Below are positions 5,800 through 57,800 of a DNA stretch of 64,000 nucleotides, one piece after another. Within the stretch, counting starts at the first letter, position 1. Every line of letters starts with the position of its first letter. The position numbers were made by a program, and so were the translations under genes. The stretch lies in IMG/VR virus record IMGVR_UViG_3300024346_000004. One strand, 5' to 3'. Below the pieces are notes generated by a model that was not told the origin of the DNA, made no database searches, and saw nothing but the letters and a program-made list of their open reading frames with translations. This DNA is from a virus. Lineage: Duplodnaviria; Caudoviricetes.

Positions 5800-6324
5800 A
5801 TGGATCGTATTGCAACATTAAATAATCTAAACAATGTTATCAATTCTTTAGAATCAAAGGGTAAATATACTTTAGCATCTCAGGTACAAGAAGTATTTGA
5901 AAAAGTAGCTCAAGCAGATATGTCTAGAAAAGATTTTTTATCTAAAGGTGTTAATTGGGCTGCTGGTCTTGGAATGGCCGGTGGTGCTGGGGCTTTAGTT
6001 AAGGACACTATGGACAAAGCTAAGGATAAACAAGATATTCTTAATCAAATGGCAGAACATGGTTATAGATTAGGTATGGGCATGAGAATTAATGTTGCTG
6101 GATCTGGCGTTAGAAATTGGCAAAGATTCCTCAATGACCACTTTGATGGCAGACTAGATGATGATGGACGTTTTGGACAATCTACTATGCTTGTTACTAA
6201 GAACTTCCAAAAAGCTCATGGTATTACTCCAGATGGTGCTGTTGGTCCTGAAACTATGAAAGCAGCATTAAGTCTTCTAGAAGAAAATATGGAAGATTCA
6301 GAAGATCTTCTTGGAATGGAATAA
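5800..6324 (+). CDS. long-leader protein with Tat-like motif and peptidoglycan-binding domain
   Basis: Leader ending EKVAQ; MSRKDFL plus Gly/Ala hydrophobic stretch; VRNWQRFLN...DGRFGQST...FQKAHGITPDGAVGPET (PG_binding_1). Confidence 0.8.
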   Translation: MDRIATLNNLNNVINSLESKGKYTLASQVQEVFEKVAQADMSRKDFLSKGVNWAAGLGMAGGAGALVKDTMDKAKDKQDILNQMAEHGYRLGMGMRINVAGSGVRNWQRFLNDHFDGRLDDDGRFGQSTMLVTKNFQKAHGITPDGAVGPETMKAALSLLEENMEDSEDLLGME

Positions 6325-6326
6325 AG

Positions 6327-6695
6327 ATGAATCTTATTACAAATCTATTAACTTTACATAATCAACTTAAAGTTTATCATTGGCAAACTAGATCTTACGC
6401 TGCTCATATGGCATTTGGTGGAGCTTATGATGCTCTAACATTGCTTATTGATCAATTTATCGAAGTGTTCCAAGGTAAGAATGGTATGTTAAAAGCACAG
6501 AATAACTTTACCATCACTCTTAGAAATCTAAATGGCGATGAAGATGTTACTAAATTCATTGAAGCATTTTTAGATTATCTTATGGGACCTTTAGTAAATG
6601 GTCTAGATACTGCTAAGGATACAGATCTCATGAATATTAGAGATGAAATGTCCGCAGAGCTAAATAAACTGAAATATTTACTTACACTCAGCTAA
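6327..6695 (+). CDS. ferritin/Dps-like four-helix protein (DUF5856-like)
   Basis: QLKVYHWQTRSYAAHMAFG..YD....ID.FIE..QG; NIRDEM...NKLKYLLTL. Confidence 0.8.
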   Translation: MNLITNLLTLHNQLKVYHWQTRSYAAHMAFGGAYDALTLLIDQFIEVFQGKNGMLKAQNNFTITLRNLNGDEDVTKFIEAFLDYLMGPLVNGLDTAKDTDLMNIRDEMSAELNKLKYLLTLS

Positions 6696-6698
6696 AGT

Positions 6699-6722
6699 AA
6701 AGGCCCCATAAAAGGGGCCTTT
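6699..6722. terminator. bidirectional intrinsic terminator
   Basis: aaaggcccc-ataaaa-ggggccttt between convergent genes. Confidence 0.8.
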
Positions 6723-6727
6723 ATTAT

Positions 6728-7108
6728 TTAAAAGTTTCCACAACTTCCACAACCGCTAGAACCTGATGAATCTCCCCCAACGCTAAAAGATTGACCACAG
6801 CCACATCCTTTTTTCATATTAGGATTAGTAACTTTAAATCCATTTTGGTCTTTAATAAAATCAATTTCAGATCCGTTGACTATTTTCATAATATCTGTAT
6901 TGACAACTATTTTGATTTTGTCATCTAAAATAATATCATCAATTTCAGGTACGAATTCTTCTAAGCCTAAATGATACTTATATCCAGCACAACCACCAGC
7001 CGATACACCTAATCTGACACATAATTCCATATCAGGATGTGACTCCATAATAGAAATGATCTCTTCAGATGCTGCTTCGGTAATATTAATTTTTAATTCT
7101 TCTTCCAT
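6728..7108 (-). CDS. iscA: HesB/IscA A-type Fe-S cluster carrier
   Basis: ITEAA, RLGV..GGCAGYKY, NPN...CGCGQSF; extra C-terminal CGSC. Confidence 0.9.
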   Translation of the reverse strand: MEEELKINITEAASEEIISIMESHPDMELCVRLGVSAGGCAGYKYHLGLEEFVPEIDDIILDDKIKIVVNTDIMKIVNGSEIDFIKDQNGFKVTNPNMKKGCGCGQSFSVGGDSSGSSGCGSCGNF

Positions 7109-9282: not shown

Positions 9283-9300
9283 AGATATATTATACAGAGT

Positions 9301-9336
9301 TAAAAAGGAATGAGCAAGGTTAGACTTACCTTGCTC
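9301..9336 (-). terminator. intrinsic terminator closing the putative ncRNA
   Basis: 9-bp stem GAGCAAGGT/ACCTTGCTC (9312-9320/9328-9336) followed on the minus strand by ATTCCTTTTT. Confidence 0.7.
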
Positions 9337-10050
9337 TTATGATCTATTTAATGGGATTACATCACTCGCAAATATGATTTGCCCATTTGTCCACTATTAC
9401 TAGTAAGATCATACAGTGTCCTATTTATACTGGAGGCGGCCCAGTCTAATGTTGGTTTCCTAGTTATATCAGAACGTATACTCAATTGCGATGAATAAGG
9501 TTCTGAATTAAGATTTACACTTTTTTATTTATAGTTCCTGAATGTATTTCTTAAATGTTTCGACAGTCACTGCTTACTTCCAACACGAAACGAGTCTATT
9601 TATGGGTTACTAAATACGCTGATATTGCGATTACATACCCTACTCTACAAGAATGTGCTCGTTTTGTCACTTCTTCACAGAAATATGACACATTCCATGC
9701 CTTTCACTTTCACGAAGTTACCAGGCGTGATTTTGAGATTAATACGACTGTTATATCGTTTCACCTCTAATCATGCATAAAAGCCTTTTGCCGTGTACAT
9801 CAGACCTTTATACTACTCTTACTCTTCAGATTTCGATGTTCGCACAAATTAAGTATGATTGCTGCCACCTTAATTTACATCTTCAATCATAGTTCCACAT
9901 TCTATTGCAAAACCTTAGAGAGATGAGCTTGCTTGAATGACCCTGAGTTGGGCGGGAGCTGTAGAGAATAGCTTTATCCCTTTTTTCACACTCTACTATC
10001 TTACGATGTCAAGCCACCGAGAATCACTTATTCAATTTTCAAAGTACAAC
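9301..10050 (-). ncRNA. putative large structured ncRNA (~740 nt; GOLLD/ROOL size class, family unassigned)
   Basis: No credible ORF in an otherwise gene-dense genome; visibly higher GC; TATAAT upstream; terminator downstream; many perfect helices and GNRA loops (see findings). Confidence 0.7.
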
Positions 10051-10059
10051 ACTATTATA
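10029..10059 (-). promoter_or_regulatory. -10 box TATAAT (10059-10054) followed by boxA-like GTACTTTGAAAATTGAATA (10047-10029)
   Basis: Direct sequence; resembles the rRNA-operon antitermination boxA (GTTCTTTGAAAA type). Confidence 0.55.
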
Positions 10060-10081
10060 CATTATTCTTATTAAAATGCAT

Positions 10082-10525: not shown

Positions 10526-10828
10526 ATGCTTAATAAATTAGCTTCTATTGCTAACGATTTAGATAATTATGGTATGTACAAGGAAGCGAATGAAATCACT
10601 TCTGTAATGAAGAGACTGTCCGGAATTTTTGATAAAAACGAAGATGTTGATTATCTTGCCATGGCTCATGCACTTAATAATGTTGCTAAAAATGAAGGTT
10701 GGCAAAACTTTAGAGAAAATTATTATGTTGATGGCCAATTCAAAGCTCAACAGTTAGCTAGAGAATTAGAACAAGTAAAAGCAAAAAATCTTTCTGAAGC
10801 GGAAGAAATGCTTAGATCGGAAGAATAA
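10526..10828 (+). CDS. long-leader hypothetical protein
   Basis: LASIANDLDNYGMYKEANEITSVMKRLS leader. Confidence 0.75.
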   Translation: MLNKLASIANDLDNYGMYKEANEITSVMKRLSGIFDKNEDVDYLAMAHALNNVAKNEGWQNFRENYYVDGQFKAQQLARELEQVKAKNLSEAEEMLRSEE

Positions 10829-11416
10829 ATGGCTACTATTGAAGATTTAGCAGATTTAGCATTAGAATTAGATAATAATAGTGCTCATAGATTAGCAGAT
10901 AAAATTACTTTAGCAATGAACAAATTTGCTAATGAAGATTGGGACCATGAATACGATATGGTCAGAAATGAAATGGAAACTGCTAAAAGAGCTATTGAAG
11001 GCATTGAAGATGTAGTGGGCGAAGATGGCGAAGGGAATTTGATGGCTTGGGTACAGTCTAAAATTTCTAATGCTGTTCAAATGCTAAAAGGTGTCTCTGA
11101 TTATTTAGTCAGCGAAGAAACTGTTGGTCAGAAAACAGCTGCTAAAAATGATGGCAAGAAACTAAACAAGCCTTTCAGAACTCCGGGTGGTCCTAAAAAG
11201 TTCTCTGTTTATGTAAAGAACGATAAGGGTAATATCATTAAGGTTAATTTTGGCTCGCCAGACATGGAAATTAAAAGAGACGACCCAGAACGTAGAAAAA
11301 ATTTCAGAGCCAGGCATAATTGTGACAATCCAGGTAAAAAGTGGAAAGCTCGTTGGTGGTCATGTCGCAATTGGGAAGCTGGGAGATCTGTATCTGACAA
11401 TCTTAAGGGTAAATAA
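10829..11416 (+). CDS. long-leader protein with DHE..M/AWVQSKI module and basic C-terminal DUF6321-like domain
   Basis: KLNKPFRTPGGPKKFSVYVKN...VNFG...RRKNFRARHNC...ARWWSC.W, a recurrent domain in large phages. Confidence 0.75.
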   Translation: MATIEDLADLALELDNNSAHRLADKITLAMNKFANEDWDHEYDMVRNEMETAKRAIEGIEDVVGEDGEGNLMAWVQSKISNAVQMLKGVSDYLVSEETVGQKTAAKNDGKKLNKPFRTPGGPKKFSVYVKNDKGNIIKVNFGSPDMEIKRDDPERRKNFRARHNCDNPGKKWKARWWSCRNWEAGRSVSDNLKGK

Positions 11417-12204: not shown

Positions 12205-13011
12205 ATGAATTACAAGCAATACCTTAAACTAGCATCAAATTTAGATAAGACTGGTCAATATAAAAGATCAGATTATATTTTTAACTTGGTTTTATCACAA
12301 ACACAAGATGATGAAGAAAATTACGATGACGAAGATGATTTAGAAGATGATGACAATACTCCTCATGAGATAATTCATCCGACACCTGTATTTTTTAATG
12401 CTGCCACTAATCAACCAGTAATGCATGAAGGAAAATATTTAGCAGCTTTACCTTTTGATCAAGATCTTCCTGAAATAAGAGGAAAAGTTAAAGCTATGAC
12501 TGGTTTAGAAAATCTAACAATTGTCAGAATACCAGTAAATATTTTAATTGTTGAATGGGTGCGTTCAGAATCAGATGCTCGCAAAACTCAAGAATTAGAA
12601 GATGCTTTAGCTTCCGGAATAGAAGATATTGGTGATTTCGGATTCTTGTTAATGATCAATGAAAACATTTTAGATGTCAAAGGTAAAGATTTAGTCTTTT
12701 CTTCTGAATCTGATGCATATGGTTTTGGAAGAGTTATAGCTGAACATTATAAAAGAGCCGGTAGAGAGATGGAAATATCTGTTGCTCCTGTCGCAGTGTC
12801 TTTAATGGATGCAAAAGAAGAAGGAATGTCATTGCCTGAAATGTATGGTGATGATGAATTTATCTTTGTTAGCAATTCATCATTCAAAGCTACTGAAATA
12901 CCAGAAACTATGGCTGATTTGAAAGATGAATTATTCCATTTATCAATGGTAAGAACATATACAGTTGATAGACTACAAAGAGAAAAACTCGGCGACTATG
13001 ATTTTGAATAG
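12205..13011 (+). CDS. long-leader acidic hypothetical protein
   Basis: LKLASNLDKTGQYKRSDYIFNLVLSQ, then a D/E-rich tract. Confidence 0.7.
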   Translation: MNYKQYLKLASNLDKTGQYKRSDYIFNLVLSQTQDDEENYDDEDDLEDDDNTPHEIIHPTPVFFNAATNQPVMHEGKYLAALPFDQDLPEIRGKVKAMTGLENLTIVRIPVNILIVEWVRSESDARKTQELEDALASGIEDIGDFGFLLMINENILDVKGKDLVFSSESDAYGFGRVIAEHYKRAGREMEISVAPVAVSLMDAKEEGMSLPEMYGDDEFIFVSNSSFKATEIPETMADLKDELFHLSMVRTYTVDRLQREKLGDYDFE

Positions 13012-13647: not shown

Positions 13648-13923
13648 ATGGATACTAATAACTTACTCAATGATTTAAATCATATCATTACATTACTGGA
13701 AAATGATGGAAATATTGTTGTTGCTAATGATTTACAAGATGTATTTGTAAAGATAGCAAAGAAGAAACCAGCAAAGAAAAATAATGTTCCTAATGATCCA
13801 GAACTTTATTCTCGTTGTAAATCAGAAGTAAAGAAGAAATTTAAAATTTGGCCTTCTGCTTATGGATCTGCAGCTTTGGTTCGCCTTTATAAACAAAGAG
13901 GCGGAACTTATAAAAAGAGTTAA
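13648..13923 (+). CDS. long-leader small basic protein (DUF5872-like)
   Basis: Leader ending FVKIAK; P.DPELY...K.EVKKKFK.WPSAY.S..LV..YK.RGG.Y. Confidence 0.7.
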   Translation: MDTNNLLNDLNHIITLLENDGNIVVANDLQDVFVKIAKKKPAKKNNVPNDPELYSRCKSEVKKKFKIWPSAYGSAALVRLYKQRGGTYKKS

Positions 13924-14308: not shown

Positions 14309-15502
14309 ATGCATCTTGTTTTTAAAAAATTAGCAGAAATTGAAAAGAAGAATTTATTTTCTTATGCAGATTATGTATTTAATAGAATAGCTCAAGTAGA
14401 TGTACCGGAAGAATTAGATGAGATTAGTAATGATATTGATACTGATTTATCTGATAATGAAATTGATCCTATAAAGTTAAATAAAATAAATCAATTAATA
14501 GAAGCTACAAAATTCCATTTATTATCTGTTGGAAATGATGCAAAAACCCCTAAAGGACTAAAATCAGGCTATATTACAGCTATTTTATATCTTGAACCAG
14601 GCGCATCTCAAATTTATAATATGGATGAATTTGATCAATATAAATTAGAGAATAAAAAATCAGGTCTAAGTACAACACAATTATGGGAAAAGTTTAAAAA
14701 AGATAATACACCTCATGCTACTAAAACAACCTGTACACATGCTTCTCCACAATGTTTAAAAGATTGTATTTATCACACAGGTAGAGGCGGGATTGATAAT
14801 GTTCAAGCTAGTAGAGAAATGAAAACTAGCAGAATGTTTCATCCAGCAACAAAAGATTTTTCAAATAAAATATTAGAAGTAGATATTAGAAATTTAATAT
14901 CCCTATGCCATAATCTAAATACAGTATTTGATTTAAATGTAAAGCCAGTAGTTAGGTTAAACGGAACCACTGATATTAACTGGGCTAAAGAAGCAGCACA
15001 TTTACATGAAAAATTTTCTGATGTAACATTCTATGATTATACTAAAGTTCCTAAATTTATGGATATGTATTTAAAAGGCCAAAATCCATATACAGGCAAG
15101 CCATTTAATCCTAACTATCATATGACATTCTCTAGATCTGAATCAAACAAATCACAAGCTCTTAACTTTCTTGAAAGAGGCGGTAATGTAGCTATTGTGT
15201 TTGATCAAATTCCAGATACTTTAACCTATCATGGAAAGACATACAGAGTTGTTAATGGAGATAGACATGACCTTAGATTTCTTGATGATATTGAAGGTGA
15301 AAAAATACCAGGAGAAGGTCTAGTTATTGGATTAAAATATAAAAGACCTATTGGAACAGAACGAAGACAAAAAAGAGTAGATAGACAAAAAGAAATTTCT
15401 CCATTATTTAAAAAGCTAAATATGGAATCCGAAGGTAGTAGTGTGCATGAAGAACCTTTTGTAATTATTACTAATGGAGAAAAGAATGTGGTAATCGGAT
15501 AA
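14309..15502 (+). CDS. Gp88-family protein with long leader
   Basis: ILYLEP, CTHASPQCLKDC..HTGRG, VRLNGTTDI.W, FYDYTK, NYHMTFSRSE, NGD.HDLRFLD. Confidence 0.75.
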   Translation: MHLVFKKLAEIEKKNLFSYADYVFNRIAQVDVPEELDEISNDIDTDLSDNEIDPIKLNKINQLIEATKFHLLSVGNDAKTPKGLKSGYITAILYLEPGASQIYNMDEFDQYKLENKKSGLSTTQLWEKFKKDNTPHATKTTCTHASPQCLKDCIYHTGRGGIDNVQASREMKTSRMFHPATKDFSNKILEVDIRNLISLCHNLNTVFDLNVKPVVRLNGTTDINWAKEAAHLHEKFSDVTFYDYTKVPKFMDMYLKGQNPYTGKPFNPNYHMTFSRSESNKSQALNFLERGGNVAIVFDQIPDTLTYHGKTYRVVNGDRHDLRFLDDIEGEKIPGEGLVIGLKYKRPIGTERRQKRVDRQKEISPLFKKLNMESEGSSVHEEPFVIITNGEKNVVIG

Positions 15503-17639: not shown

Positions 17640-17649
17640 ATATATATCT

Positions 17650-17673
17650 TTCTAAAATCCAGGGACAGTTCCT
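17650..17673 (-). promoter_or_regulatory. putative phage late promoter AGG-N17-AGAA
   Basis: AGG 34 nt before ATG 17639. Confidence 0.6.
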
Positions 17674-20465: not shown

Positions 20466-20499
20466 TAAAATTCACCTCTATTAATATCGATGTCCATTT

Positions 20500-23394: not shown

Positions 23395-23712
23395 ATGTCC
23401 AAGTATATCAAAAAAAGTAGTAAATTTGAAAAAGTATATAAAGTTGAATTGACAGAGAATTTAGACGATACTTTAAATCAATACGATGAAAAAAATTATT
23501 ATGTAGATCCTGATGGTCAATGGGAAAATGCTATACCTATTTCCAAGTTCAGAAAAACATTAACTGACGAAGAACTTCATTTGCCATCAGCTGTAGATTC
23601 TAATCATATTGTATTTTTTGAAGAAGATGGAGATGTACAGGTAATGAATATGGTTCCTGAACATCATTTAGATTCTTTGCATAACCAGAAATCAAAATAT
23701 ACTAAGAAGTAG
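23395..23712 (+). CDS. hypothetical protein with short leader MSKYIKKS
   Basis: ORF track; late-type promoter. Confidence 0.65.
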   Translation: MSKYIKKSSKFEKVYKVELTENLDDTLNQYDEKNYYVDPDGQWENAIPISKFRKTLTDEELHLPSAVDSNHIVFFEEDGDVQVMNMVPEHHLDSLHNQKSKYTKK

Positions 23713-39558: not shown

Positions 39559-39559
39559 A

Positions 39560-39929: not shown

Positions 39930-41423
39930 CTATTTTGCGCCTGGGAATTCTGGAGTTGGTCTGTGTAAACCATAGTCTTTGATGAACTTAAATCTCTTGC
40001 CTCTACTCTTAGGCATTCCTCTATAAACTTCATCCCAGTCACTATCATTACCAGTAAGCTTAGATATCTGGTGTAATCGGTCAATAAGTCCACGGTGAGC
40101 GACCATAGTAGGCATAGGTGTTTTCCCTACCTTACCTTTAGCTCTAGCTCCTGCCAAGAATTTAGCTCTAGATCTAATAATTTTAGCAGCAAAATATTCG
40201 TCTAATTCTTGACTTGTAATTTTTTTGGACAACATTGCAATCATGTTGTCTATTTCAATTTTTTCTTGAGGAGTAGAAGTTAGGTTGAGAGGCTTTTGTT
40301 GTATACCTAAAGCGTCTCTGAGAATCATAGTAACCCAGCCTAAACCTGAATTAAACTTAATGTCTGCTAAAGCAATCGCTGTATTAGCTGGAAGTTTAGA
40401 AACACCTAATTCTTGCCAATCAACAAATGCTGCTTTTTCAGCTTCTTCTTTTGTTAATTTAAAGACTGATTTAGGTGGAAAGCCATAAGCTCTGACTAAT
40501 CCATTATAATGTTTTTGTGTAATTCCAAAGTTTGTTTCCCCGCCTGGATCTGTTTTCATGTTAACAGCTCCACCTTCTTGCTTGTTTCTGAAATCTTTGT
40601 AAATTTCATATACTTCTGCGGGATCAGTTTTAAATGGAAGACCTTTATTTTTCTTACTGTCAAATACTAACCAGTGTTTTTTGACTGATTTTCTTTCTCT
40701 GCCTGTTATTTTCCCAGAATCCAAATCTTCCATCATTTTGAGTTTGATTTTTCTTCTAGCTGGCATTTTAGCTTTAGGTCTAGCTATTTCTTTTTTGACA
40801 GGCTGCTTTATTTCTGGTTGTTCGATAATAGGTTGCGGAGCTGCTTGCTCTACTATAGGCTTATCGTACAAAGGATCCTGAACCATTTGCTCAGGTGTAG
40901 TTTCTTTTGGAGTTATTAGTTGTTCTATTTTAATTAAGTTTGAAAGATTTGGATCTTTAGGGTTATTTAGAATAGCAGCTTTAAATGTTTGGCTATCTAA
41001 AACTCCAGTTGCAGATATGCTTTGAGCTCTTTGGAAAACTACAGTAGCATCCACGGTAGCTTGTCCGAAATCATTATCTACATCAAGCCCGGCATTACTA
41101 TTCGCATTTAGATAACTTTGCCACGCTCCAACAGCTGTATGTTTTGCGCCTTTACCAAAAGGTTTGAATTCTGTAATATTATAGTTTTGTAATATTTTTG
41201 CTGGATTTTCTAAATATGTTTGGATTAATTTAGTAGTTGTCCCAGCTACAACACCTGCTAATGTTAGAACTGCAAATAAAGTATTTTTATTATAGTACCA
41301 AGGCTCATTACCAGCTACTTTTGTAAATACATCATGTATTTTTGCAGCTTCTATGAGTTTACCTTGAGATTCTAAATCGCAGCAGATATTATTTAATTCA
41401 AGTAAAAGGGCATACCTATTCAT
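39930..41423 (-). CDS. long-leader lysin: TM segment, PG-binding domain, GH108-type lysozyme
   Basis: Leader ending FTKVAG; TLFAVLTLAGVVAG; VGAWQSYLN...D.DFG..T..A...FQ; EGG.VN...DPGGETNFGIT...D..FNSG. Confidence 0.8.
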   Translation of the reverse strand: MNRYALLLELNNICCDLESQGKLIEAAKIHDVFTKVAGNEPWYYNKNTLFAVLTLAGVVAGTTTKLIQTYLENPAKILQNYNITEFKPFGKGAKHTAVGAWQSYLNANSNAGLDVDNDFGQATVDATVVFQRAQSISATGVLDSQTFKAAILNNPKDPNLSNLIKIEQLITPKETTPEQMVQDPLYDKPIVEQAAPQPIIEQPEIKQPVKKEIARPKAKMPARRKIKLKMMEDLDSGKITGRERKSVKKHWLVFDSKKNKGLPFKTDPAEVYEIYKDFRNKQEGGAVNMKTDPGGETNFGITQKHYNGLVRAYGFPPKSVFKLTKEEAEKAAFVDWQELGVSKLPANTAIALADIKFNSGLGWVTMILRDALGIQQKPLNLTSTPQEKIEIDNMIAMLSKKITSQELDEYFAAKIIRSRAKFLAGARAKGKVGKTPMPTMVAHRGLIDRLHQISKLTGNDSDWDEVYRGMPKSRGKRFKFIKDYGLHRPTPEFPGAK

Positions 41424-41433
41424 GGATATATTT

Positions 41434-42454: not shown

Positions 42455-42489
42455 AATAAAAATATACAGATTTCTTTTATAATAGGTCT

Positions 42490-43615: not shown

Positions 43616-44458
43616 ATGAAAATAATTATTTCTAGTTGCAAATATCATGAATCTGTTGGAAATTTTCACCAAGCAGATATAAATGATAGGGTGTTACAAA
43701 AGATTGCTAAGACCCCTGAAGGCGAACCAATTATTGAAAAGTTAGATTGGGTCAATACTTCGCTCAAACCCAAGGACGTGATAAAAATGGAGTCAGATGT
43801 ATATCCTCCTGATTTCCATGTATTTTCAGATCTGGAAGTACCATCTTATGTATATATGACTCCAGAACAACAAAAATTAATACCTAAACCTGCAAGAGAC
43901 AAAATTTATAAAGAAATAAGAGAAAAAGCTGATGAATATCTTATAGAAGATGATAATGATAAATATATTGTAGATGGTATGAATGGGATATTCTATTTTA
44001 TTTTATCTGTAAATAATAGAAAGAAAAAAATAGAAGTAGAAGATCTTACAGTTATTCCAGGTAACAGAAGAACAAATTTGATGATAGCTTTAGACAGATT
44101 ATATAAGCTTCTAATGCCTTATCAATCTCAAGGATTTTCAATTATAGGATCAGCTAGAAAAACAACATCTTGGCCTATGATTAAAAACATGGTCAAACAA
44201 GGATGGCTTATACCTGTTAGAGGCAAAAGAATAAAAAAAGTTGTCAAAGATGATCAAGGAAGAGTTGTTGATATGAAAACTAGCATGGATGATATTGGGG
44301 ATGAAGAATTACATGAATTTGAATTCCAATTAAATCTTCCATCTGCTCTTCCAGATTATATTCAAAAAGCTGCTGCCGAGGCTTATGAAAAACTTAGTCC
44401 TAAAAAAACTTTTGTTAATAAAGGCATAGATAAGTTGAAAAGTTTTTTTGCAAGATAG
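43616..44458 (+). CDS. long-leader protein, possible GNAT-fold domain
   Basis: Leader ESVGNFHQADINDRVLQKIAK; I.ME..VYP...IEVEDLTV.P..R...AR.TTSWP.I pattern. Confidence 0.5.
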   Translation: MKIIISSCKYHESVGNFHQADINDRVLQKIAKTPEGEPIIEKLDWVNTSLKPKDVIKMESDVYPPDFHVFSDLEVPSYVYMTPEQQKLIPKPARDKIYKEIREKADEYLIEDDNDKYIVDGMNGIFYFILSVNNRKKKIEVEDLTVIPGNRRTNLMIALDRLYKLLMPYQSQGFSIIGSARKTTSWPMIKNMVKQGWLIPVRGKRIKKVVKDDQGRVVDMKTSMDDIGDEELHEFEFQLNLPSALPDYIQKAAAEAYEKLSPKKTFVNKGIDKLKSFFAR

Positions 44459-44494: not shown

Positions 44495-44992
44495 ATGAAT
44501 AGATCATTAGTAAAATTAGTAAAAATAGCTAATTTATTGGATTATAGAGGAATGCACGACGAAGCAGATAAATTGACTCGTGTTGCTGTTAAAATGGCTC
44601 AAAATTTCGATAGTGAATACAGCAAGTATGAAATGCGTACTCAACGAGATCTTGATAAAAGTTTAGAAGATGGATTTGCTGGTGGAAACTATTCAAATGT
44701 ATCATCTTTAGAAAATGACCCGATGTTGAAAAGATATAAAATGGAATATCAACAAGATCCAATGTCAGAGGGCGATCAAGAATTGGAAAATTCAGTTCAA
44801 GATAAACTAACGGTTGCATTATCAGGAACATATTTGGAAGACAGTGTTAAGAGTGGCGATACTTTATATATTTTAGAACCATGGCTTAATGATGAGATGT
44901 CTATTTCTGAAGCTTGTGAAAAATATGAATCTGATTTGAAAGAACAGAGAAATGATTTTGGAGATGATGGTTACGATCCATTAGATGACTAA
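44495..44992 (+). CDS. long-leader acidic hypothetical protein
   Basis: LVKIANLLDYRGMHDEADKLTRVAVKMAQ; SD GGAGA. Confidence 0.75.
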   Translation: MNRSLVKLVKIANLLDYRGMHDEADKLTRVAVKMAQNFDSEYSKYEMRTQRDLDKSLEDGFAGGNYSNVSSLENDPMLKRYKMEYQQDPMSEGDQELENSVQDKLTVALSGTYLEDSVKSGDTLYILEPWLNDEMSISEACEKYESDLKEQRNDFGDDGYDPLDD

Positions 44993-48879: not shown

Positions 48880-51222
48880 ATGTTTTTTAATAAGAAACTA
48901 CCTACTGATTTTGACCAGGTGCAAGAAAAAGGCAGAGAAATTAGTGAAATTTTTTTCAAGCCAACACAAGAATTACAACCAGATTTCAATTTGATTGATA
49001 AGGTAAACAAAAGCAAATTTGAAGATTTTCAAGCATCTTCATTAGCATCATTTTTTGAAAGACTTGAACTAATCCCTACTGTAGATCTTGGAGATGTAAA
49101 TTTAAAGATCAGAACTACAAATCCATCAGCTCCAATTGATGCTGATTTATGCCAAGTTTGGATGAGAAGAACATACACTAATCCAACAACAGGGCAAACA
49201 ACAGAACAATGGCTTAATTGGGTTCCTAATGACGATGTAGCTAAAAAATATTTTAAGTTTAGTTTGTTTTCTGGAGAAACTCAAACATTTAACTTTGACA
49301 TAAGTACATTTGATGTTGGAAAATATGATAGTTTTAGATTTATTTTCTTTACCAACCATTGGACAGTGCTTGCAGATCAAATGGCAGAAAATGTTTCATT
49401 TGAGATTACTACAAAACAAAAAAGAGTTAAGTCTCCATTTGTAGAAATTTTAGTTGATAAAATTCAAGATCCAGGTTCAGATGGCAAATTACATATTCCC
49501 TATGTAATCAAAATGCCACCTAAGACTTTTACTACTTGGGGTGGATGGTTCTTGTTAGGAAAAGGCGGATCACTGTTTCAGCAGCCTTGGATTGCTTATG
49601 CTAAAAAAAATGGTTCTGATGTTCTTCCTGATGGTGCAACAAAAGTAGCTGATGGCCCAGACCCATATTGGTATTCAGAGGGTGAACTAATATTTGATTA
49701 TCCAAGTGTAAGTGGTATCCACAATTTACAGTTTGGTTTATTTGATTACAATTGGAAACTTCAAAACTGGGTTTGGCCAGGTATTAATATTCAAGTAGGT
49801 GGAGATAGCTGGGTTACAAAATGTCCAGATTCAAAATTACCACCAAGATTAAGAGTTAGTAATGGTCAGTTAGTTAAGCTTGATGGTACACCTTATAATA
49901 TTTACGAAGGCACAACTGGAGCTAATGCAATCACAGCTATAAGAGGCGGTAATTACGGTAACCAATATTTATGGTCAGAGGCACCAGATTATAATAGAAC
50001 TGGATTCTTTAGCTCACTAAAATATCTTGGACATAAGTTCTTGAGATTTTTATTCAATCCAGACAAATATATTGCTGATAAAATTTACAGAAATAGAATT
50101 CAAGACACAATTGGTAAAATGCTTAGTGCTGGCTGCCATGTTATTGTTGGGCCTCAGCATATTCCAACTGGAAATGATTTACATGATAAATCAGAAGGCT
50201 TCTATAAACTCGTTGAATTAATGGCAAATAACTGGAAGGGTTTACCAGTCTGGGTTTGTCTTACAAATGAGCCTAACGATATTGGCGATTGGAGTTTATG
50301 CAAGCCTATTCTTCAGAAAGCAGCAACAATTTATAGGTCTATTGATCCTGACGCTTTTCTCATTTGCCCAACGTCTAAATGGTCAAAAGAAAATACTACC
50401 CCTGAAGCTAATGATTTAATTGATCCCCTATTAGTTGACGCATATGCTTACCATGCTTACAACGGTGCTACAGACGTTATTCCTAACCTTAAACCAATAT
50501 TAGATAAGGGTGTTGCAGTGATTGTTGAAGAATATGGCTGCGGAGATGTTGAATGGCAAAAAGGCATTAACATTGAGATGCAAAAGCTTTCAAAATTATA
50601 TCCAAACCTTATAGCATTTGCTACTTGGGCTTGGACAAGAGCTGGAGAAGATGCTTGTCCAATGGTTGAAGATGGGAATCTTGCTAATGTAAAATTAACT
50701 GCTACAGGCCAGATGCAAGCAAAGGATCTACAAACTTGGGACAGTGGTAATTTTATTAGTGAAGGAAGTGTTGTTCAGCCTACCCCTCAACCAAATCCAC
50801 TACCTACACCATCTCCTGAGCCATCTCCTACACCTCAACCTGTTGATTCAATTTCTAAAACAGAAGTTGATAGCCTATTAGATACAAAGCTTAATCAATC
50901 ATTAACTTTATTAAAAGAAGATTTGAAGATTTATATCAAAGACTCTATAGATGCTTATGATGTTCTTCAAGATGCAGAAACAAAGCAATATTTTGATACT
51001 GCTGTAAGCAATTTAGAGTTAGTAGATATTATTGAAATTGATGCAAAATATACAGACGTAAGTGAAGTATCAGCATTGTCAGGTAAAGAAATTGTTAAGT
51101 TTAGAGCGGAACTATACAACAAGGTTCTTAGTGATTATAAACTTATGCTAAAGGCCCCAACAGTAGCAAAATTATCTGCATATTTGGCCAAGTTTATTGA
51201 ACACATTAAACCACCTGTCTAA
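48880..51222 (+). CDS. multidomain glycoside hydrolase (GH5/clan GH-A-like) with Pro-rich linker and helical C-terminus
   Basis: LRV.NGQLV..DG, VCLTNEP (acid/base), AYAYHAY, VIVEEYG (nucleophile), WAW; PTPQPNPLPTPSPEPSPTPQP linker; SD AAGGAG. Confidence 0.75.
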   Translation: MFFNKKLPTDFDQVQEKGREISEIFFKPTQELQPDFNLIDKVNKSKFEDFQASSLASFFERLELIPTVDLGDVNLKIRTTNPSAPIDADLCQVWMRRTYTNPTTGQTTEQWLNWVPNDDVAKKYFKFSLFSGETQTFNFDISTFDVGKYDSFRFIFFTNHWTVLADQMAENVSFEITTKQKRVKSPFVEILVDKIQDPGSDGKLHIPYVIKMPPKTFTTWGGWFLLGKGGSLFQQPWIAYAKKNGSDVLPDGATKVADGPDPYWYSEGELIFDYPSVSGIHNLQFGLFDYNWKLQNWVWPGINIQVGGDSWVTKCPDSKLPPRLRVSNGQLVKLDGTPYNIYEGTTGANAITAIRGGNYGNQYLWSEAPDYNRTGFFSSLKYLGHKFLRFLFNPDKYIADKIYRNRIQDTIGKMLSAGCHVIVGPQHIPTGNDLHDKSEGFYKLVELMANNWKGLPVWVCLTNEPNDIGDWSLCKPILQKAATIYRSIDPDAFLICPTSKWSKENTTPEANDLIDPLLVDAYAYHAYNGATDVIPNLKPILDKGVAVIVEEYGCGDVEWQKGINIEMQKLSKLYPNLIAFATWAWTRAGEDACPMVEDGNLANVKLTATGQMQAKDLQTWDSGNFISEGSVVQPTPQPNPLPTPSPEPSPTPQPVDSISKTEVDSLLDTKLNQSLTLLKEDLKIYIKDSIDAYDVLQDAETKQYFDTAVSNLELVDIIEIDAKYTDVSEVSALSGKEIVKFRAELYNKVLSDYKLMLKAPTVAKLSAYLAKFIEHIKPPV

Positions 51223-51299: not shown

Positions 51300-53993
51300 C
51301 TAAAACAATTTCACATTAGGGAAACTTGTCAATACTTCAAATCCCATATTGTCCCAGTGTCTTTCATCTGCAAAAGGTCTAAAGTTAATCCAATATGAGT
51401 TATCTGGTTGCCAAGTTCTTTGTTCACCAATTTCATTATAAGTGTGATAGATCAAGTGAGTATAGTTGACATTGATTTCTTCAAATGGGAAATCAACAGG
51501 TAATGGAGAATCAGCAACTAAATATCCATCTTCTGTAACTACAACTCTGTTCTTTGAAACATATAAATCAAACTTGACTCTTCTATCTAATCCCTGCCAA
51601 GTTCTATTTAAAGGATAATCTCTTCTTTCAACACTTGGTCTAAAGAAAATTTCACCTTCATATTTACCTGAAACAGCATTCATAGTAGATCTATAAATAA
51701 TTGCTCCTGAACGATTAGTGGAATAAACATCCATTAATTTATTTAACGATGCTTTTGATGTTTCTTTAATCCACCAGTTATTAGGATTAAAATCAATGTC
51801 ATCAATCATCTTAAATGTTTCAGGTGTCCATTCATATTCAGCAGCGCCACCAAATTCAGCAAATCTAATCCAGCCAGATTTTGGAGAATAATTTGACTCT
51901 AAATTGAAAGATGGAAACTTATTACCATCAAAAAACTTAGATGATAGCTTGACATTAACATCATTACCATTTTGAACTACAGAGTTAGCTACAAATGTAC
52001 CTACCCTGTATTCAGTGAGATTATTGATGCTTCTATAAGGGGCTGGGTAAGAATAAATACTATGTCTATCAGCAAACTTCACTGGCACTGAATAAGATTT
52101 TCTTGAACCATCAGGATTATAACCAGTGTCAATGTTGATATTATGATGACCAGCACCAATCGCCCATCTAAATAACTTACCAGACTTTGTGTTCATAGCA
52201 ATTTTATCTGCTGCTTTACCTGAATAAACAGTTTCTCCAGCGGGTAATAAAAGTACATCACACCATCTTCTTCCAGAGAAATGCGGGTCAACTTCAAATG
52301 TAACGTGAAGAACTTTACCTCCACTTATATTTGCAGTTTTCTTAGGACTCATTAACATAACACCATTACTTAAGTGAGCCCAACCAGGAACAGGAAGTGA
52401 AGCACCATCATAAATAGTGTCCATAAAGTGAGAACCCATTAAGAACACAGTAGAATGGTTTGTATCTAAATCATCTAAAAAGAAATTCCATTTGTCATTC
52501 TCAAACCATTTTAAAAATAAATGAGCTTCGTTTTTATATTGATTGTTTGGACCAAATCTAAAATCAAATATATCTTGTTTTGTTGGCAATTGAACTATAG
52601 GCTGAAAATTTCTAAAGTTGTCAAAGAAAACTTGCTCTCCAGTTAGAACTCTTTGAAATGTAGTAACCTTATATGGATTAGATTTTGCAACAACATTAGG
52701 TTCATTAGAAGGATCTCCATGACCATTTACTGCTGCATGAATTTCTCCATTTGGCCCACTAGCCCCCGGCCCAATAATTCCATCAATTTTCTGATAAGGA
52801 CCCATTTTATCAAGTGCTTCAACAATAATATTATATGATTGATTGCTTGTTAAACCATTCATTTCAATCATATTAAATCCAGAAGAATATTTGACAGTAT
52901 TTGAATTACCCTCAACATAAGCTCTGTAATCAATAGCACCCGGAACATAATCAAACTTTACAACTACACTGTCGTCATTAGGTTCGTTCCCAGTAATATT
53001 AATAGGAGTAGGAGATAAATCTTTAGGACCAAATGCTGTATTAATTTCAACAATTGGACCTAATGTTTCTTGAACTTTAAATTGATCCCTATTAACTGAA
53101 CCAATTTGATATTTGTATGTCTTACCTGAAACAACATTTGTATCAATATAATATTGAGACCATAATCCAGAACAAACTATGACTCCATCTCTATAGACAT
53201 TGTAAGCATTTGGAGCATCTTGACCCCAAACTTGTTGATCTTGCCATTTGATGAAGTTTCTAGGTCTGCCTCTATTCCATTCAGGACTTACAACATATTT
53301 TCCAGGAGTTGACGGAGGATTTGTTCTCCAGCCAAAGTTGTAATTTGGTGCCCAACTTCCTCTTGCCATACCTAAATTTGATGGTAATGATTCTAATCCA
53401 TATTTATCAACTGCTGTAACTGTATATGTCCAGTGATCTTGATAAATTAATTTACTTACAGTGAATGAGTTGGTCTTTGATGAACCAATTTTATTATCGT
53501 ACCTGTAAATATTATAATAGGTAGCTTCGGGACTTGGTTCCCATTGCAGGATATCAAAAGGGCCATTATCCCAGAAACCAAATGTTCTTAAATTTGTAGG
53601 CGCTTCTGGATTCTTGAGAACTAATAACGGAATAGTAACAGTAGATTTCTCAGACATTTTAAGATATCCGCTTGGTACTAATCCTGCAACATAATAATCC
53701 CATTTTTGCTGATATTTGACGTTTCTATCAATGGTCATATTTTCGTTATTAGTCAATTTTGCAAAAGGTTTATTATAATCAGGCTTAATTCCTTGTTGAA
53801 CTCTGTATATATTATATCGAGTACATTTGGGTATTAAATCCCATTTGAGCTTTACATGATAATTTGACGGAGTGCCTACACAATAACACAATTCCACCTG
53901 CGTTGAGAAATTCTTCACTTGTGGTAGTTTTTGAGCATTTACTCCAGATATTATAATGTACAAGAGACACCATAAAACAATAGCTTTCTTCAT
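51300..53993 (-). CDS. secreted fibronectin type III repeat protein
   Basis: Sec signal peptide; repeated L.W......YN[IV]YR...Y.V.AV...G.ES FN3 units; SD GGAGG. Confidence 0.75.
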   Translation of the reverse strand: MKKAIVLWCLLYIIISGVNAQKLPQVKNFSTQVELCYCVGTPSNYHVKLKWDLIPKCTRYNIYRVQQGIKPDYNKPFAKLTNNENMTIDRNVKYQQKWDYYVAGLVPSGYLKMSEKSTVTIPLLVLKNPEAPTNLRTFGFWDNGPFDILQWEPSPEATYYNIYRYDNKIGSSKTNSFTVSKLIYQDHWTYTVTAVDKYGLESLPSNLGMARGSWAPNYNFGWRTNPPSTPGKYVVSPEWNRGRPRNFIKWQDQQVWGQDAPNAYNVYRDGVIVCSGLWSQYYIDTNVVSGKTYKYQIGSVNRDQFKVQETLGPIVEINTAFGPKDLSPTPINITGNEPNDDSVVVKFDYVPGAIDYRAYVEGNSNTVKYSSGFNMIEMNGLTSNQSYNIIVEALDKMGPYQKIDGIIGPGASGPNGEIHAAVNGHGDPSNEPNVVAKSNPYKVTTFQRVLTGEQVFFDNFRNFQPIVQLPTKQDIFDFRFGPNNQYKNEAHLFLKWFENDKWNFFLDDLDTNHSTVFLMGSHFMDTIYDGASLPVPGWAHLSNGVMLMSPKKTANISGGKVLHVTFEVDPHFSGRRWCDVLLLPAGETVYSGKAADKIAMNTKSGKLFRWAIGAGHHNINIDTGYNPDGSRKSYSVPVKFADRHSIYSYPAPYRSINNLTEYRVGTFVANSVVQNGNDVNVKLSSKFFDGNKFPSFNLESNYSPKSGWIRFAEFGGAAEYEWTPETFKMIDDIDFNPNNWWIKETSKASLNKLMDVYSTNRSGAIIYRSTMNAVSGKYEGEIFFRPSVERRDYPLNRTWQGLDRRVKFDLYVSKNRVVVTEDGYLVADSPLPVDFPFEEINVNYTHLIYHTYNEIGEQRTWQPDNSYWINFRPFADERHWDNMGFEVLTSFPNVKLF

Positions 53994-54074
53994 AACATAC
54001 CTCCCCAGGTTTATTTTTAAGTTGAGAGCTATTGTTTTATTCTTGTTTCACAGGTATACTTCTTTTAGAGGTAC

Positions 54075-54446
54075 GTGATAATGCGATATGATAAGAATCA
54101 ATTTCTTTGGAATTTTCTTTATGTTTGTATGACTAAAAATATTACTTTTAGTGATCAAGATTTTTATAATTTTTCCAAAGCATGCAATATTAAAGTTGAT
54201 ATGAATTATGCTATGGAAAACTTTTTTGATAATGGTGTATCAAAAACAGTAGTTGGGTCTACCTCAACTTTTGTAGCTAGTAAGTCTTTGCTGGGTCCTT
54301 GTTATATCCATCCCCAAGGAACAAATCCCAAAAATATTAAATATAATATTTCAAAGATTATTCACGAACTAAAGCTGTCTCAACAAAAACTAACTACAGA
54401 TGAAAAACTAAAGAAAATTACAGATTACATTGATCTGTTAGGATAA
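54075..54446 (+). CDS. hypothetical protein
   Basis: SD GAGG; terminator downstream. Confidence 0.6.
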   Translation: MIMRYDKNQFLWNFLYVCMTKNITFSDQDFYNFSKACNIKVDMNYAMENFFDNGVSKTVVGSTSTFVASKSLLGPCYIHPQGTNPKNIKYNISKIIHELKLSQQKLTTDEKLKKITDYIDLLG

Positions 54447-54448
54447 AC

Positions 54449-54475
54449 AAAAACCCTCCATAAAGGAGGGTTTTT
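54449..54475. terminator. bidirectional intrinsic terminator
   Basis: aaaaaccctcc-ataaa-ggagggttttt. Confidence 0.85.
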
Positions 54476-54709
54476 TTATAACTTGTCTAATCCTAGATCA
54501 TCATAAACTTCCCAAATTGGCCCAGCATTGTCTAATACTGTTTGATGCAATATAAAATAATCTTCCCAAGAATTAAAAAACACATTTCCCATGCTGTCTA
54601 TAATTTTTTCTTCATTCCGATATATATAATAGTCTTCAGGCCATCTTCTAGATCTAATTTTTAATCCTAAATCTATCATTGGACGAGACATTTGACTAAA
54701 TAATTTCAT
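54476..54709 (-). CDS. divergent DUF2829/Tad2-like small protein
   Basis: From ATG 54709 (SD GGAGA): F......G.KIR...W...YI...WEVY. Confidence 0.45.
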   Translation of the reverse strand: MKLFSQMSRPMIDLGLKIRSRRWPEDYYIYRNEEKIIDSMGNVFFNSWEDYFILHQTVLDNAGPIWEVYDDLGLDKL

Positions 54710-54802
54710 ATTATCTCCCACCAGTACATTATATCTTCTAAAGGTTATATCTTGTATAATTGACAAATAATATCTATAATATTATTGCTTTTAGGTAACT
54801 TT

Positions 54803-57800
54803 ATGTCTCAAATCAAATTCGTCAACACATCTTCAATTGTAAGTATCAAAATAGCAAATATGTATGATTCTATTGGTGATTATTCTTACTCAGATAAATT
54901 TGACAGATATGCGAATTTAATGCTCAAAATCGCACAACAAGAACAAAATGAAGAGACTGAAGATATTATTGAAGAAACACCTGAAAATGAACATGCGCAA
55001 TATATTGTAGACCATCCTTTAGCTGATGAACAATCCTCTAAATTAAAATCTCAAATTAGTGAACAAGATCATGATTTATTTGATGAATTTTATAATGCTT
55101 GGAGCTCAGGAAATACCATCAATGAATCTATCAAACAGCTATATGATCGAGTAAATAAACCGGAAAATAAGAGCCTTGGAAATTATTTAAGGGTTATAGT
55201 TGAAAATGTTATTCAAGCATTCTATAAAATTCCAGACTCATCATTGTATGAATTTACTGATCAATTTCTAAAAGGTAATCTTAAATTTGCTGAAGATGAG
55301 CTTTTATTATCTTTAAGATATTCAAAGCCAGAACAAATTATAAGATTTGACAAACAATATAAAATTGATTCAGCTGTTAAATATTTACCTGATGGTCATG
55401 CTAAAAAACTATTTTCAGAATATTTATATTATCATTCTAATCCAGAAAATTTAGGTCAAATATTTAATGATCTTATGAATCTTTATGATTTAGCTGATTA
55501 TTTTGAAAATTCATCGGAACTTCAAGCTTACTTAAATGATGCGTCTGCATTTGATTCTAAAATTCCTGAAATGAATAAAGAGGAAATTGTAAATTTCAAA
55601 AAAGCTGGATTATCTTTTTTACCTGGAAAAAATAACTACCAAGAACAACTTAACATCCGATGCCAAGATAATAAGATATATTATTTTATAAAAAATATTA
55701 TTTTTTTTAGAGGCATACAAGAACCTGTTCAAATCAGCAACAATGTGTTAGAACGATTGACTGCGCATTATTCTCCTGAACAAGTCAGAGTAATTTTTGA
55801 TAATATTAAAAGTCTAATGAGAGATTCTGATGCAGAACATATCATCAGAATAAATACAATACTTCCATTTGATCAAGCTATCGCTAAGTATAAAGAATTA
55901 CAACATGATGGAACTGAACTAAACCTATATTACAAACAAGTTCTGGGCAAAGATTATGAATTATTTAATTTAGAGCCTGATCAAGTAAACCAGACCCTAT
56001 ATTTAGTTTTGATAGAAGCTGACAAAGAAAAAGCAGAAATATACATAGGATCATTATCTGATCTTTTAAATAATTATGTTAGAAGTGCTATCACAAAATC
56101 TAATGCTAAATATTTCTTGGATTATATTACACAATTTGACAGAGACTATGTTCAACAATATTTAAAAACTTATTATCTTTCTACTTACATCAAATTTCGC
56201 CCTGACAGATTACAAGAAATTCATCCTATTGAGATTCTGAAGCATAATAATCCTGACATTGTTTTAGCCTATCATAAATCTAATCCAGAATTTTCAAGCT
56301 TAAGTGTAGATGATATTGAAAAGTATTCAGAATTTTATAAAAATAATTCAAATGCTGTAGATATTCCATATAAAGATTTAGAACCTCATATTGCAAATAA
56401 GAATGTTCAAAATTATATTTTGTTTGGTTCTACTGACCCTAATAAAGCTAAAATAGCTGACAAGATTTATAAAGCTAACAGTTATAGATCAAGAGAAATC
56501 GCAGCTCGTTTTAAAGACAGTGATATTATCGATATATCTAAGATAGGTTTACTAAATATAAGTAATCCAAGATTTGCACATTTATCATTAACTGAATTAA
56601 ATTTACTTTCTGATAAAGTAAACCATTTTGAGACATTAGAAAGAATTAAATTAGTTAAAGATAGTTTCAAGAATCCTAGAAATACAGCATATCATAACTT
56701 TGAAGAAGGAAGTGCTGATTACAATAAGCTCTTATATATTTTATTTCATAATTATGATCTAAGAGGGCGAAATCCTCAATTGCTTATCAAACTTTTAGAT
56801 CTTCATGCAAAAGATGAAATGATAACAGAATTAGGACTAGATGATGTTAATCATATGATCCGTAATAGGGTTGCTTGTGATTTACCAAATATTAATGTTT
56901 CAGATGCAAAAATACATGTAAGAAATAGAAAAACTATTATACATGATATAGAAGTTAAAGTATACAATAAATACCATACAGCAATTAAAGCACAAAACAC
57001 TGAGATCGCTAAATATCCTATAAATCAAATATTAGATTTCGTAACAAAATATGATAATGCTTTAAATACAGATGAAGATGCTGAAAGTTATTTACCTAAA
57101 GGTGTAACAGCTAATCAAGCTGGTGATGCATTGCAAGCTATAAATGATGGGCATGGTTTATTAATTTATTTAAATAGAGAATCAATGATAAAATTTTATA
57201 AATTAATAATGGATAAAATTATTGGGATTAATCCTGATTATTCTGACTCTACTACTAAACTTATGCCTATATATGCAGCAACAGCTGCTACTGCAGATAT
57301 AAATTATTATTTACCTGATGTCATAACAGAAGATTTTATAAAAGAAATTACAAGTACTCAAATTCCCAATAAATTAAATATAGACTTTTCAAAAGCTGAA
57401 GTAAGGTTAAATTCAAATACACAACTAGAATATGTAAATGAATCTATGGCACTTCTCAGATTATTTAATAAATCATTACCTAATTTTCTTGATAAATTTA
57501 TTATCGCATCAGGAAAAGATTACGGTAAGATATTTAAATTTTCGGAAATGGATGATTATGTTCAAAGTATTGTAATACATTCTGCTGCGCAAAAGTTTGA
57601 CAAAATTGATCCTGGTCCGGGTTTATCTGATTATATCATTCAGCAAATGAATAATAAAAATTTATTTCAACTTGCTAAAGTAGCGAGAATGTGGAATAAA
57701 GAAATAAATATTGCTGATGAAAAAATGAGTATAGCCTCCAAATCTCTCGTGTCTGAATTATCTAAAATGTATGATGTAAGTGAACTCTCTGATTTAATTA

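Follow-up and report, generated by a model that had tools for sequence, protein, structure and literature searches.

The window analysed here, a stretch of 64,000 nucleotides (G+C content 31-33%) from a virus of the Caudoviricetes (IMG/VR record IMGVR_UViG_3300024346_000004), contains ten genes for proteins that begin with a similar N-terminal leader. A preliminary description of this DNA had proposed that the leader is a portable head-sorting tag, which would be removed by a protease with K/R-x-A/S specificity. We followed up this proposal in the window, in the 165,921-bp record that contains it (G000; CheckV completeness 46%) and in two related IMG/VR contigs that are 88-89% complete (G001, 316 kb; G002, 358 kb). 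G002 and the window are syntenic, with a median protein identity of 50%, and 248 of its 395 open reading frames (ORFs) match G001. All ten ORFs were present and started with the leaders as first described:

5800..5913, plus strand: leader of 38 residues ending in EKVAQ, on a 174-aa protein (5800-6324); leave-one-out E 1e-8
10526..10624, plus strand: leader of 33 residues ending in KRLSG, on a 100-aa protein (10526-10828); leave-one-out E 7e-10
10829..10933, plus strand: leader of 35 residues ending in NKFAN, on a 195-aa protein (10829-11416); leave-one-out E 0.013
12205..12300, plus strand: leader of 32 residues ending in LVLSQ, on a 268-aa protein (12205-13011); E 1e-5 with a profile of 105 leaders, leave-one-out E 0.07
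13648..13761, plus strand: leader of 38 residues ending in VKIAK, on a 91-aa protein (13648-13923); leave-one-out E 9e-7
14309..14395, plus strand: shortened, degenerate leader of 29 residues ending in NRIAQ, on a 397-aa GP88-family protein (14309-15502); the weakest member
41310..41423, minus strand: leader of 38 residues ending in TKVAG, on a 497-aa protein (39930-41423); leave-one-out E 8e-7
43616..43711, plus strand: divergent leader of 32 residues ending in QKIAK, on a 280-aa protein (43616-44458); E 1.6e-5 with the larger profile
44495..44602, plus strand: leader of 36 residues ending in VKMAQ, on a 165-aa protein (44495-44992); leave-one-out E 7e-10
54803..54937, plus strand: long leader of 45 residues ending in LKIAQ, on a 1,248-aa orphan protein (54803-58549); E 8e-7 with the 105-leader profile, leave-one-out E 0.004

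A profile made from the ten leaders and run against all six frames of the window matched only those ten, the next ORF having an E-value of 0.03. When each leader was left out in turn, eight of the ten still came first among the non-training ORFs. Five of them had E-values below 1e-6 (1e-8 to 1e-10 for the leaders at 5800, 10526 and 44495; about 1e-6 to 1e-7 for those at 13648 and 41423 on the minus strand), and the leaders at 54803, 10829 and 12205 gave values of 0.004 to 0.07. The leaders at 14309 (rank 5) and 43616 (rank 12) were missed; the 105-leader profile recovered the latter (E 1.6e-5) and not the former. The set in the window is made up of eight solid leaders, the one at 43616, which is recognized with the larger profile only, and a degenerate one at 14309.

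The bodies that stand behind this one leader are indeed unrelated and comprise PG_binding_1, GH108, DUF5872 and GP88 as well as orphans. Neither a Pfam nor a PHROG family covers the leader, and the preliminary description had recognized no named family either. The 5800-6324 protein continues with a Gly/Ala-rich hydrophobic stretch and then PG_binding_1, the 39930-41423 protein with a hydrophobic segment, PG_binding_1 and a GH108 lysozyme, in that order, and the body of 13648-13923 is a small basic DUF5872 domain. A strongly acidic linker follows the leader at 12205. The 10829-11416 protein has a G002 orthologue that is 80% identical and also carries the leader. The 1,248-aa protein starts with the ATG at 54803, not with the TTG at 54785. 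The identity of the leaders at the DNA level was 23-76%, and where two leaders shared a residue, the codons differed, for most pairs, in about a third to a half of the cases; a DNA repeat or a recent gene conversion was ruled out by this range of identities and by the many synonymous differences.

Fold and spread of the leader

In an alignment of 73 leaders the similarity ended as abruptly as had been described: columns 1-38 carried 1.1-5.4 bits each, nearly all more than 2, and columns 39-50 less than 1 bit. The consensus was MNKRQI-ASLNKIANELDN-GLY-EAN--T-VM-[KR]-[ILV]-[AS]-Q, with K or R at position 35 in 100% of the leaders and, at position 37, A in 84% and S in 14%. Polar surface positions were among the conserved columns 1-38. 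AlphaFold2, run on the leader alignment, predicted two helices (A, residues 3-19; B, residues 23-38) around a turn, with a pLDDT above 90 across residues 1-35 and disorder past residue 38. The leader at 54803 has a three-residue insertion in helix B. A fold search with the hairpin model returned generic helical hairpins only, with E-values above 2.

No match was obtained when the leaders were compared with Pfam at a threshold of E 0.01. The commonest sub-threshold match was TPR_10 (13 of the 73 leaders, best E 0.004), and a single TPR_10 repeat was also the closest sequence relative of the leader. The hairpin core, L-N-x-I-A-N-x-L-D-x-x-G-x-Y-x-E-A, reads as one repeat of TPR_10/TPR_12 (PF13374, PF13424). 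Unlike these repeats, the hairpin is never found in tandem and sits at the terminus of phage orphan proteins; there is one copy per protein, rarely two, and these are then far apart. The leader is not a TPR member because it is present as a single copy, with no tandem array of three or more repeats, and scores below the Pfam threshold.

A profile search among 1.84 billion cluster representatives gave 1,228 at E <= 1e-3, some of which were cellular TPR proteins. Within the 150 best matches, 90 had one copy located in residues 1-40, and 37 were long cellular TPR_10/TPR_12 arrays that matched the leader core only. G000 contained at least 16 N-terminal leaders, i.e. at least six more than the ten of the window, and a loose scan (E <= 0.01) found 19 hairpin copies in G001 and 22 in G002. 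About one protein in 20 of the phage bears the tag. Five of the six additional N-terminal copies of G000 cluster at 161.8-165.9 kb, the sixth being at 20350. The further copies in G000 (coordinates of that record) were as follows:

20350, plus strand: N-terminal leader
161796-162449, minus strand: N-terminal leader
163343, plus strand: N-terminal leader
164101-164529, minus strand: N-terminal leader
164557-164904, minus strand: N-terminal leader
165565-165921, minus strand: N-terminal leader, gene cut
164926-165558, minus strand: C-terminal hairpin on a 210-aa protein
2101-2742, minus strand: C-terminal hairpin on a 213-aa protein

The expectation that the tag would be exclusively N-terminal was borne out for 37 of the 43 hairpins of G000, G001 and G002; three were C-terminal and three internal or cut. 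The C-terminal hairpins, which lacked the [KR]-x-A-Q end, were found on small proteins and on paralogues of about 900-1,000 aa that are encoded in tandem. These large paralogues (three genes at 34141-42563 of G001; 74637-80511 of G002) have no known domain, and each of them ends in a hairpin devoid of the cut motif (...KLADKFTNILRKYNV). They may be cargo that keeps its tag permanently, or may act as a partner for the leaders.

We considered the possibility that the hairpin is an uncleaved, TPR-like docking or oligomerisation element that gathers proteins on a common partner in the infected cell, the [IVL]-A end reflecting helix packing. The cross-matches with TPR_10/TPR_12 arrays among the best profile matches, the place of TPR_10 as commonest sub-threshold family, the conservation of nearly all surface positions, the existence of C-terminal copies without a site and of two-copy proteins, and structural neighbours that are generic dimerising or binding hairpins are all consistent with such a role. 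We nevertheless consider it unlikely, in view of several observations on the end motif that it leaves unexplained and that are presented below.

The end motif, short tags and a head protease

The distribution of the end motif along proteins was examined with the pattern [KR]xA[QSK]. Within the first 60 residues, enrichment was confined to two segments, positions 1-10 (23 observed for 7.8 expected) and positions 26-35 (28 observed for 7.8 expected). The first peak is due to minimal tags, i.e. starts that carry the motif without the hairpin. In G000, G001 and G002 together, 33 of 934 proteins (3.5%) started with MWY, compared with 0.6 expected, mostly as MWY[KR]x[AS]. The short tags of the window discussed here were:

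4678..4698, plus strand: minimal tag MWYKIAQ on a 146-aa protein (4678-5118), with a [KR]-x-A-Q end and no hairpin
23395..23421, plus strand: nine-residue tag MSKYIKKSS on a 105-aa protein (23395-23712)
58863, 62300, 63000, 63361 and, probably, the internal Met of 61676: other MWY starts, which bring their number in the window to six

A third class of starts, MSK[WY]IK, was seen in the window at 13929, 15505 and 23395, and MKRLIKK[AS] starts occurred in phage G on gp13, gp17 and gp38, in the head module; both fit hydrophobic-x-K-x-[AS]. The protein at 23395-23712 has the short tag in the window, and its homologues in G002 and G001 carry the full hairpin. The short tag and the last residues of the hairpin aligned one to one (YIKKSS in the window, FMKQAS in G002, FIKVAN in G001). 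Another body bears a hairpin in G002 and none in G000. A hairpin, a short tag or no tag at all may precede homologous bodies. An uncleaved docking hairpin would account neither for six-residue N-terminal tags, which are too short for a folded module, nor for their exact alignment with the hairpin end on a homologous body.

The preliminary description had drawn its comparisons from T4 and phiKZ. The phage, a jumbo phage, proved to be a relative of phage G rather than T4- or phiKZ-like. In the related contigs the capsid protein has 284 aa and matches the PHROG major head protein (E 5e-68); G001 and G002 share it at 98% identity. Metagenomic contigs of up to 421 kb encode more than 1,000 relatives of it, and its closest cultured relative is gp27 of Bacillus phage G, with 47.5% identity over the full length. 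The leaders end in [KR]-x-[AS], and the Glu-type cleavage sites of T4 (L/I-x-E) and phiKZ (S/A/G-x-E) were not found at this place.

Between the portal and capsid genes of G001 and G002 lies a gene for a polyprotein of 1,379 or 1,405 aa, respectively, of which residues 52-242 matched the PHROG head maturation protease family (E 4e-20). The predicted fold of residues 30-300 had a pLDDT of 90.4, and its top matches in the PDB were T4 gp21 (5jbl) and the proteases of EBV, HSV, KSHV, HCMV and PrV, with a probability of about 1.0. As judged from this model, the N-terminal domain of the polyprotein has the fold of T4 gp21 and herpesvirus assemblin. A His, a Ser (in DVSMG) and the motif NxNGDxF were invariant in 20 homologues with identities down to 27%. 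In phage G, the homologue is gp19 (E 3e-59). A sequence search of the PDB left the protease domain unmatched; Pfam Peptidase_S77 and Gp23, the T4 protease and capsid families, gave nothing in G000 or its relatives, and Peptidase_S78 (PF04586, the HK97 protease) gave zero matches in G000-G003, although the threshold was as loose as E 10 for the relatives. Some polyprotein homologues (P0228, P0262 and P0263) are about 380 aa longer and contain a LAGLIDADG-type domain (PF14528) within the protease region; this insert in the head protease gene is probably an intein.

We then ranked the 934 proteins of the three genomes by the density of [KR][IVLMTFY]A[QSKNEDG]. The top six were three pairs of G001/G002 orthologues, all from the head module. 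The protease polyprotein had 11 sites for 2.4 expected, the 344/335-aa head-module protein 5 for 0.9 expected, four of them within 45 residues, and the 562/533-aa protein adjoining the capsid gene 5 for 0.9 expected. In composition-preserving shuffles the p-values ranged from 0.0004 to 0.003 for the three pairs, that of the polyprotein being 0.0004 in both genomes, and many sites were kept at the same positions between orthologues. There were no sites in the capsid protein, the adjoining 217-aa protein and the terminase.

Furthermore, a motif of this type follows the protease domain, as [IV]-[KR]-[LIV]-A-Q-x-A-G in close homologues and as [KR]-[KIV]-[IV]-A-[QSNH] in distant ones (27-50% identity). 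Phage G gp19 has FPVKIAG and LVKTAA before the protease domain, and EKVAS and LKIAS after it. Neither the peak of the motif in head-module proteins nor its persistence behind the protease domain of distant homologues is explained by a hairpin that only docks. In G002, the large terminase gene is directly followed by a short-tag gene (MSENIRIAQ) and then by a hairpin gene, and an MWY protein gene lies between these two and the portal gene.

Another explanation is that the proteostasis machinery of the phage (GroEL, DnaK/DnaJ, ClpXP) reads the leader as a handling tag or pro-domain, which would then govern the folding, timing or turnover of a set of proteins rather than their location. The phage encodes GroEL (28486-30102 in the window) as well as ClpX and ClpP (16579-17955 and 117825-118424 in G000). 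Snyder and Tarkowski reportedly found in 2005 that the N-terminus of the T4 capsid protein directs proteins to GroEL. Phage G also encodes ClpXP, both subunits of which were detected in its particle proteome (PMC12484599). Yet the prediction gives the hairpin a stable fold, which sets it apart from known degrons and chaperonin-binding segments, and the motif enrichment favours head-module proteins and an assemblin-fold protease rather than ClpP, whose gene is located among metabolic genes, away from the portal and capsid genes. We regard this explanation as quite unlikely. ClpP had also been considered as a candidate for the prohead protease itself, and was discarded because of its metabolic-gene neighbours and its pairing with the ClpX gene.

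Putative loading and release of tagged proteins

The motif statistics, the modelled protease fold, the gene context in G002 and the gain and loss of tags lend partial and indirect support to the portable head-sorting tag with a K/R-x-A/S protease that had been proposed at the outset. On balance, we think it somewhat more likely than not that the hairpin is a propeptide that targets proteins to the capsid and is cleaved off by the prohead protease. The hairpin would dock the attached protein onto a conserved component inside the assembling prohead. This component could be the 284-aa capsid protein, which is very conserved, one of the head-module proteins of 562 and 344 aa, or the polyprotein in its scaffold-like part. 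The protease with the gp21/assemblin fold would cut at the end of helix B, at hydrophobic(P5)-x-[KR](P3)-x-[AS](P1), directly before the disordered and often acidic linker, and cleavage would release the cargo within the head for ejection with the DNA. Proteins that are only to be trimmed would bear just the site, as tags of six to nine residues (MWY[KR]xA, MSK[WY]IK), and C-terminal-hairpin proteins without a site would remain tagged. With somewhat less than even confidence, we propose in particular that the hairpin, as a folded single-repeat module, is a general and transferable address label that docks on a near-invariant inner-capsid component and, throughout a widespread clade of jumbo phages akin to phage G, loads at least 20 fast-evolving proteins per particle, an assemblin-like protease with an Ala/Ser specificity like that of herpesviruses then releasing them. 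A prediction of the complex of capsid protein, protease domain and hairpin gave no answer (score 0.00) and speaks neither for nor against binding.

Several points weigh against a cleaved targeting propeptide. Part of the [IVL]-A conservation is possibly structural, because the tag resembles a TPR_10 repeat: small and hydrophobic residues at the matching TPR_10 helix positions are structural, and helix A also contains K-I-A-N, so that part of this signal can be accounted for without any protease. The leader at 12205 lacks K/R-x-A, and C-terminal or internal hairpins occur, some of them without a site. The profile search found no hairpin in phage G, and none was matched in 50,697 GenBank phage records; in DNA and protein searches of GenBank phages, the window DNA, the 897-aa protein described below, a 142-aa leader protein and a 42-aa leader were likewise unmatched. 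The head module is visible only in the relatives, at about 50% protein identity, and is absent from the G000 record, which is a 46% fragment. A terminal tag might also be read by GroEL, ClpX or ClpP. The two lysin-like cargos, which look like endolysins with SAR-like hydrophobic segments, could act from the cytoplasm or the membrane instead of the capsid; they would fit endolysins tethered to the membrane just as well, which speaks against a role in the capsid alone. Finally, the location in the virion, the cleavage and its position, the docking step and its partner have all been inferred.

We also examined the upstream regions of the leader genes. A promoter-like element, [AT]AAGG[AT]T, was present 36-65 nt upstream of 5 of 15 leader genes, compared with 12 of 204 other genes of G000 (Fisher p 0.003). 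In the window it reads TAAAGGTT and lies 60, 36 and 63 nt upstream of the leader genes at 10526, 43616 and 54803, respectively. The element was also found upstream of the beta-helix fibre gene, the G002 protease gene and several MWY genes, a weak indication that leader genes are co-regulated with structural genes. Its presence before a fibre gene would also fit a tag that sends proteins elsewhere in the virion (to the portal, tail or baseplate) or serves as an ejection signal at infection, with cleavage being optional. Such a role would agree with the 900-1,000-aa proteins that keep a C-terminal hairpin without a cut site, and with the two cell-wall-enzyme cargos that have a membrane segment, like trans-envelope ejection proteins. 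However, prohead proteases act inside the head (T4, HK97, SPN3US; PMC10052503), the motif is concentrated in head-module proteins, and in G002 a hairpin gene is located in the head module itself, which makes this alternative very unlikely in our view.

Returning to the capsid-targeting propeptide, fusions of a protease with a scaffold that cut themselves and their neighbours at a short consensus are known from T4, lambda, phiKZ and SPN3US (PMC10052503). The propeptides of T4 (the capsid-targeting sequence, CTS, of IPI-III and Alt) resemble the present leader in that an N-terminal extension on unrelated proteins ends at the prohead protease consensus, that the site recurs in scaffold and core proteins and in the protease itself, which here is seen statistically only and in relatives, and that the protease has the same fold (gp21, 5jbl). 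They differ in several respects. The T4 CTS has about 10-19 residues and no defined fold, whereas the present leader is a conserved helix-turn-helix of 38 residues; T4 cuts after Glu (L/I-x-E), whereas the cut would here occur after Ala or Ser, with K/R at P3; and there are here, unlike in T4, about 20 tagged proteins per genome, to which the minimal MWY tag adds another 3.5% or so of the proteome. In T4 both loading and cleavage are established; for the hairpin system they are inferred.

The herpesvirus assemblin consensus is (V/L/I)-x-A|S, cleavage taking place after Ala and before Ser. Likeness to assemblin extends from the protease fold to the Ala at the putative P1, the small or polar P1' residue, the putative self-release site behind the protease domain and the scaffold-like C-terminal fusion; the putative P3 residue is K/R instead of V/L/I, and the sequence identity amounts to 9-19%. 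For the docking step, the nearest mechanistic analogue is the C-terminal helix-turn-helix of the P22 scaffolding protein, which binds coat and by means of which P22 particles have been filled with foreign proteins. This gp8 element, of about 40 residues, is alike in form only, with two helices and conserved basic residues in the second one, and a protein fused to it is taken into the procapsid with no need of anything else. It is C-terminal, found on one protein and not cut off, whereas the present hairpin is mostly N-terminal and its binding to the capsid is a proposal. The helix-and-hook of the 80alpha scaffold is a comparable element.

Two other systems are comparable as to processing. The 80alpha Prp leader is a short N-terminal motif found on the non-homologous capsid protein, scaffold and ribosomal protein L27; it is cut beside Ala (F|A), and the scaffold needs it for assembly (PMC5744158). 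In contrast to the hairpin, it has 13-14 residues, is removed by a host cysteine protease and has few carriers (PMC5744158). The jumbo phages phiKZ and SPN3US (gp175, gp245) similarly have many head proteins that shed N-terminal propeptides, several copies of the motif within the propeptides and a self-cleaving protease (PMC10052503), but these propeptides share no single folded module and their motif ends in Glu, and the present phages belong to the phage G lineage. Head-targeting propeptides are already known (phiKZ/SPN3US, PMC10052503; the 80alpha Prp leader, PMC5744158; also the T4 CTS), and our literature searches retrieved no published description of the hairpin leader. What appears new is the folded and highly conserved address module, its separation from a minimal tag for cleavage, the proposed specificity for Ala/Ser and the occurrence in the phage G lineage.

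Phage G has the protease and head-module starts of the MKRLIKK[AS] type without the hairpin; for this reason the cut site looks older, with the hairpin apparently added in the uncultured metagenomic clade. Which proteins are carried into the cell, and how the phage selects them, is known in a few model phages only (T4, P22, phiKZ/SPN3US). If our proposal is correct, a sequence rule would predict from metagenomes the set of packaged and ejected proteins of a large, abundant and uncultured clade, and would provide the first specificity for a phage G-type head protease, cleavage after Ala or Ser, which is nearer to herpesvirus assemblin than to T4 or phiKZ. The folded address module and the minimal cleavage tag would then be separate, their functions being merged in the T4 tag, and would amount to a natural programmable protein packaging in which the 'address' (hairpin) can be taken apart from the 'cut here' signal (six residues). 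Should loading require no more than the hairpin, this would be a candidate tag to fill capsid-like particles with chosen proteins.

Cargo bodies and other genes

The two cell-wall cargos (PG_binding_1; PG_binding_1 and GH108) both have their Gly/Ala-rich hydrophobic segment right behind the leader. The other cargos comprised the basic DUF5872 domain, the GP88-family protein, acidic zinc-ribbon proteins and many orphans; these types are plausible for ejected proteins. Small cargos consisting of the leader, an acidic linker and one or two CxxC...CxxC zinc ribbons were seen at 163343-163729 of G000, 30861-31352 of G001 and 149918-151291 of G002. Pfam gave nothing on ten further G001/G002 cargo bodies or on the large proteins with a C-terminal hairpin. 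The published proteomics of phage G particles used a fully tryptic search, and processing was not analysed (PMC12484599). On the GP88-family and 1,248-aa cargos the phage G virion proteome is uninformative, because no homologue of either was found in phage G.

Some additional features lie away from the leader genes. In G000, a gene for gyrase B or a topoisomerase II subunit with an intein-like insert (3-2018, minus strand) is cut by the contig end. In the window, 9283-10081 is the sole long gene-free stretch, and two small proteins (1730-2074 and 2071-2562) have signal-peptide starts ending in SQ. The 897-aa fn3-containing protein (51300-53993, minus strand) has a signal-peptide-like start and is 80% identical to its G002 orthologue, compared with the median of 50%. 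Fibre- or depolymerase-like proteins (Laminin_G_3, right-handed beta-helix, GH5 cellulase) are encoded at 17673-22650 and 48880-51222 of the window; since their genes sit among replication and chaperone genes, the structural genes are scattered in this genome.

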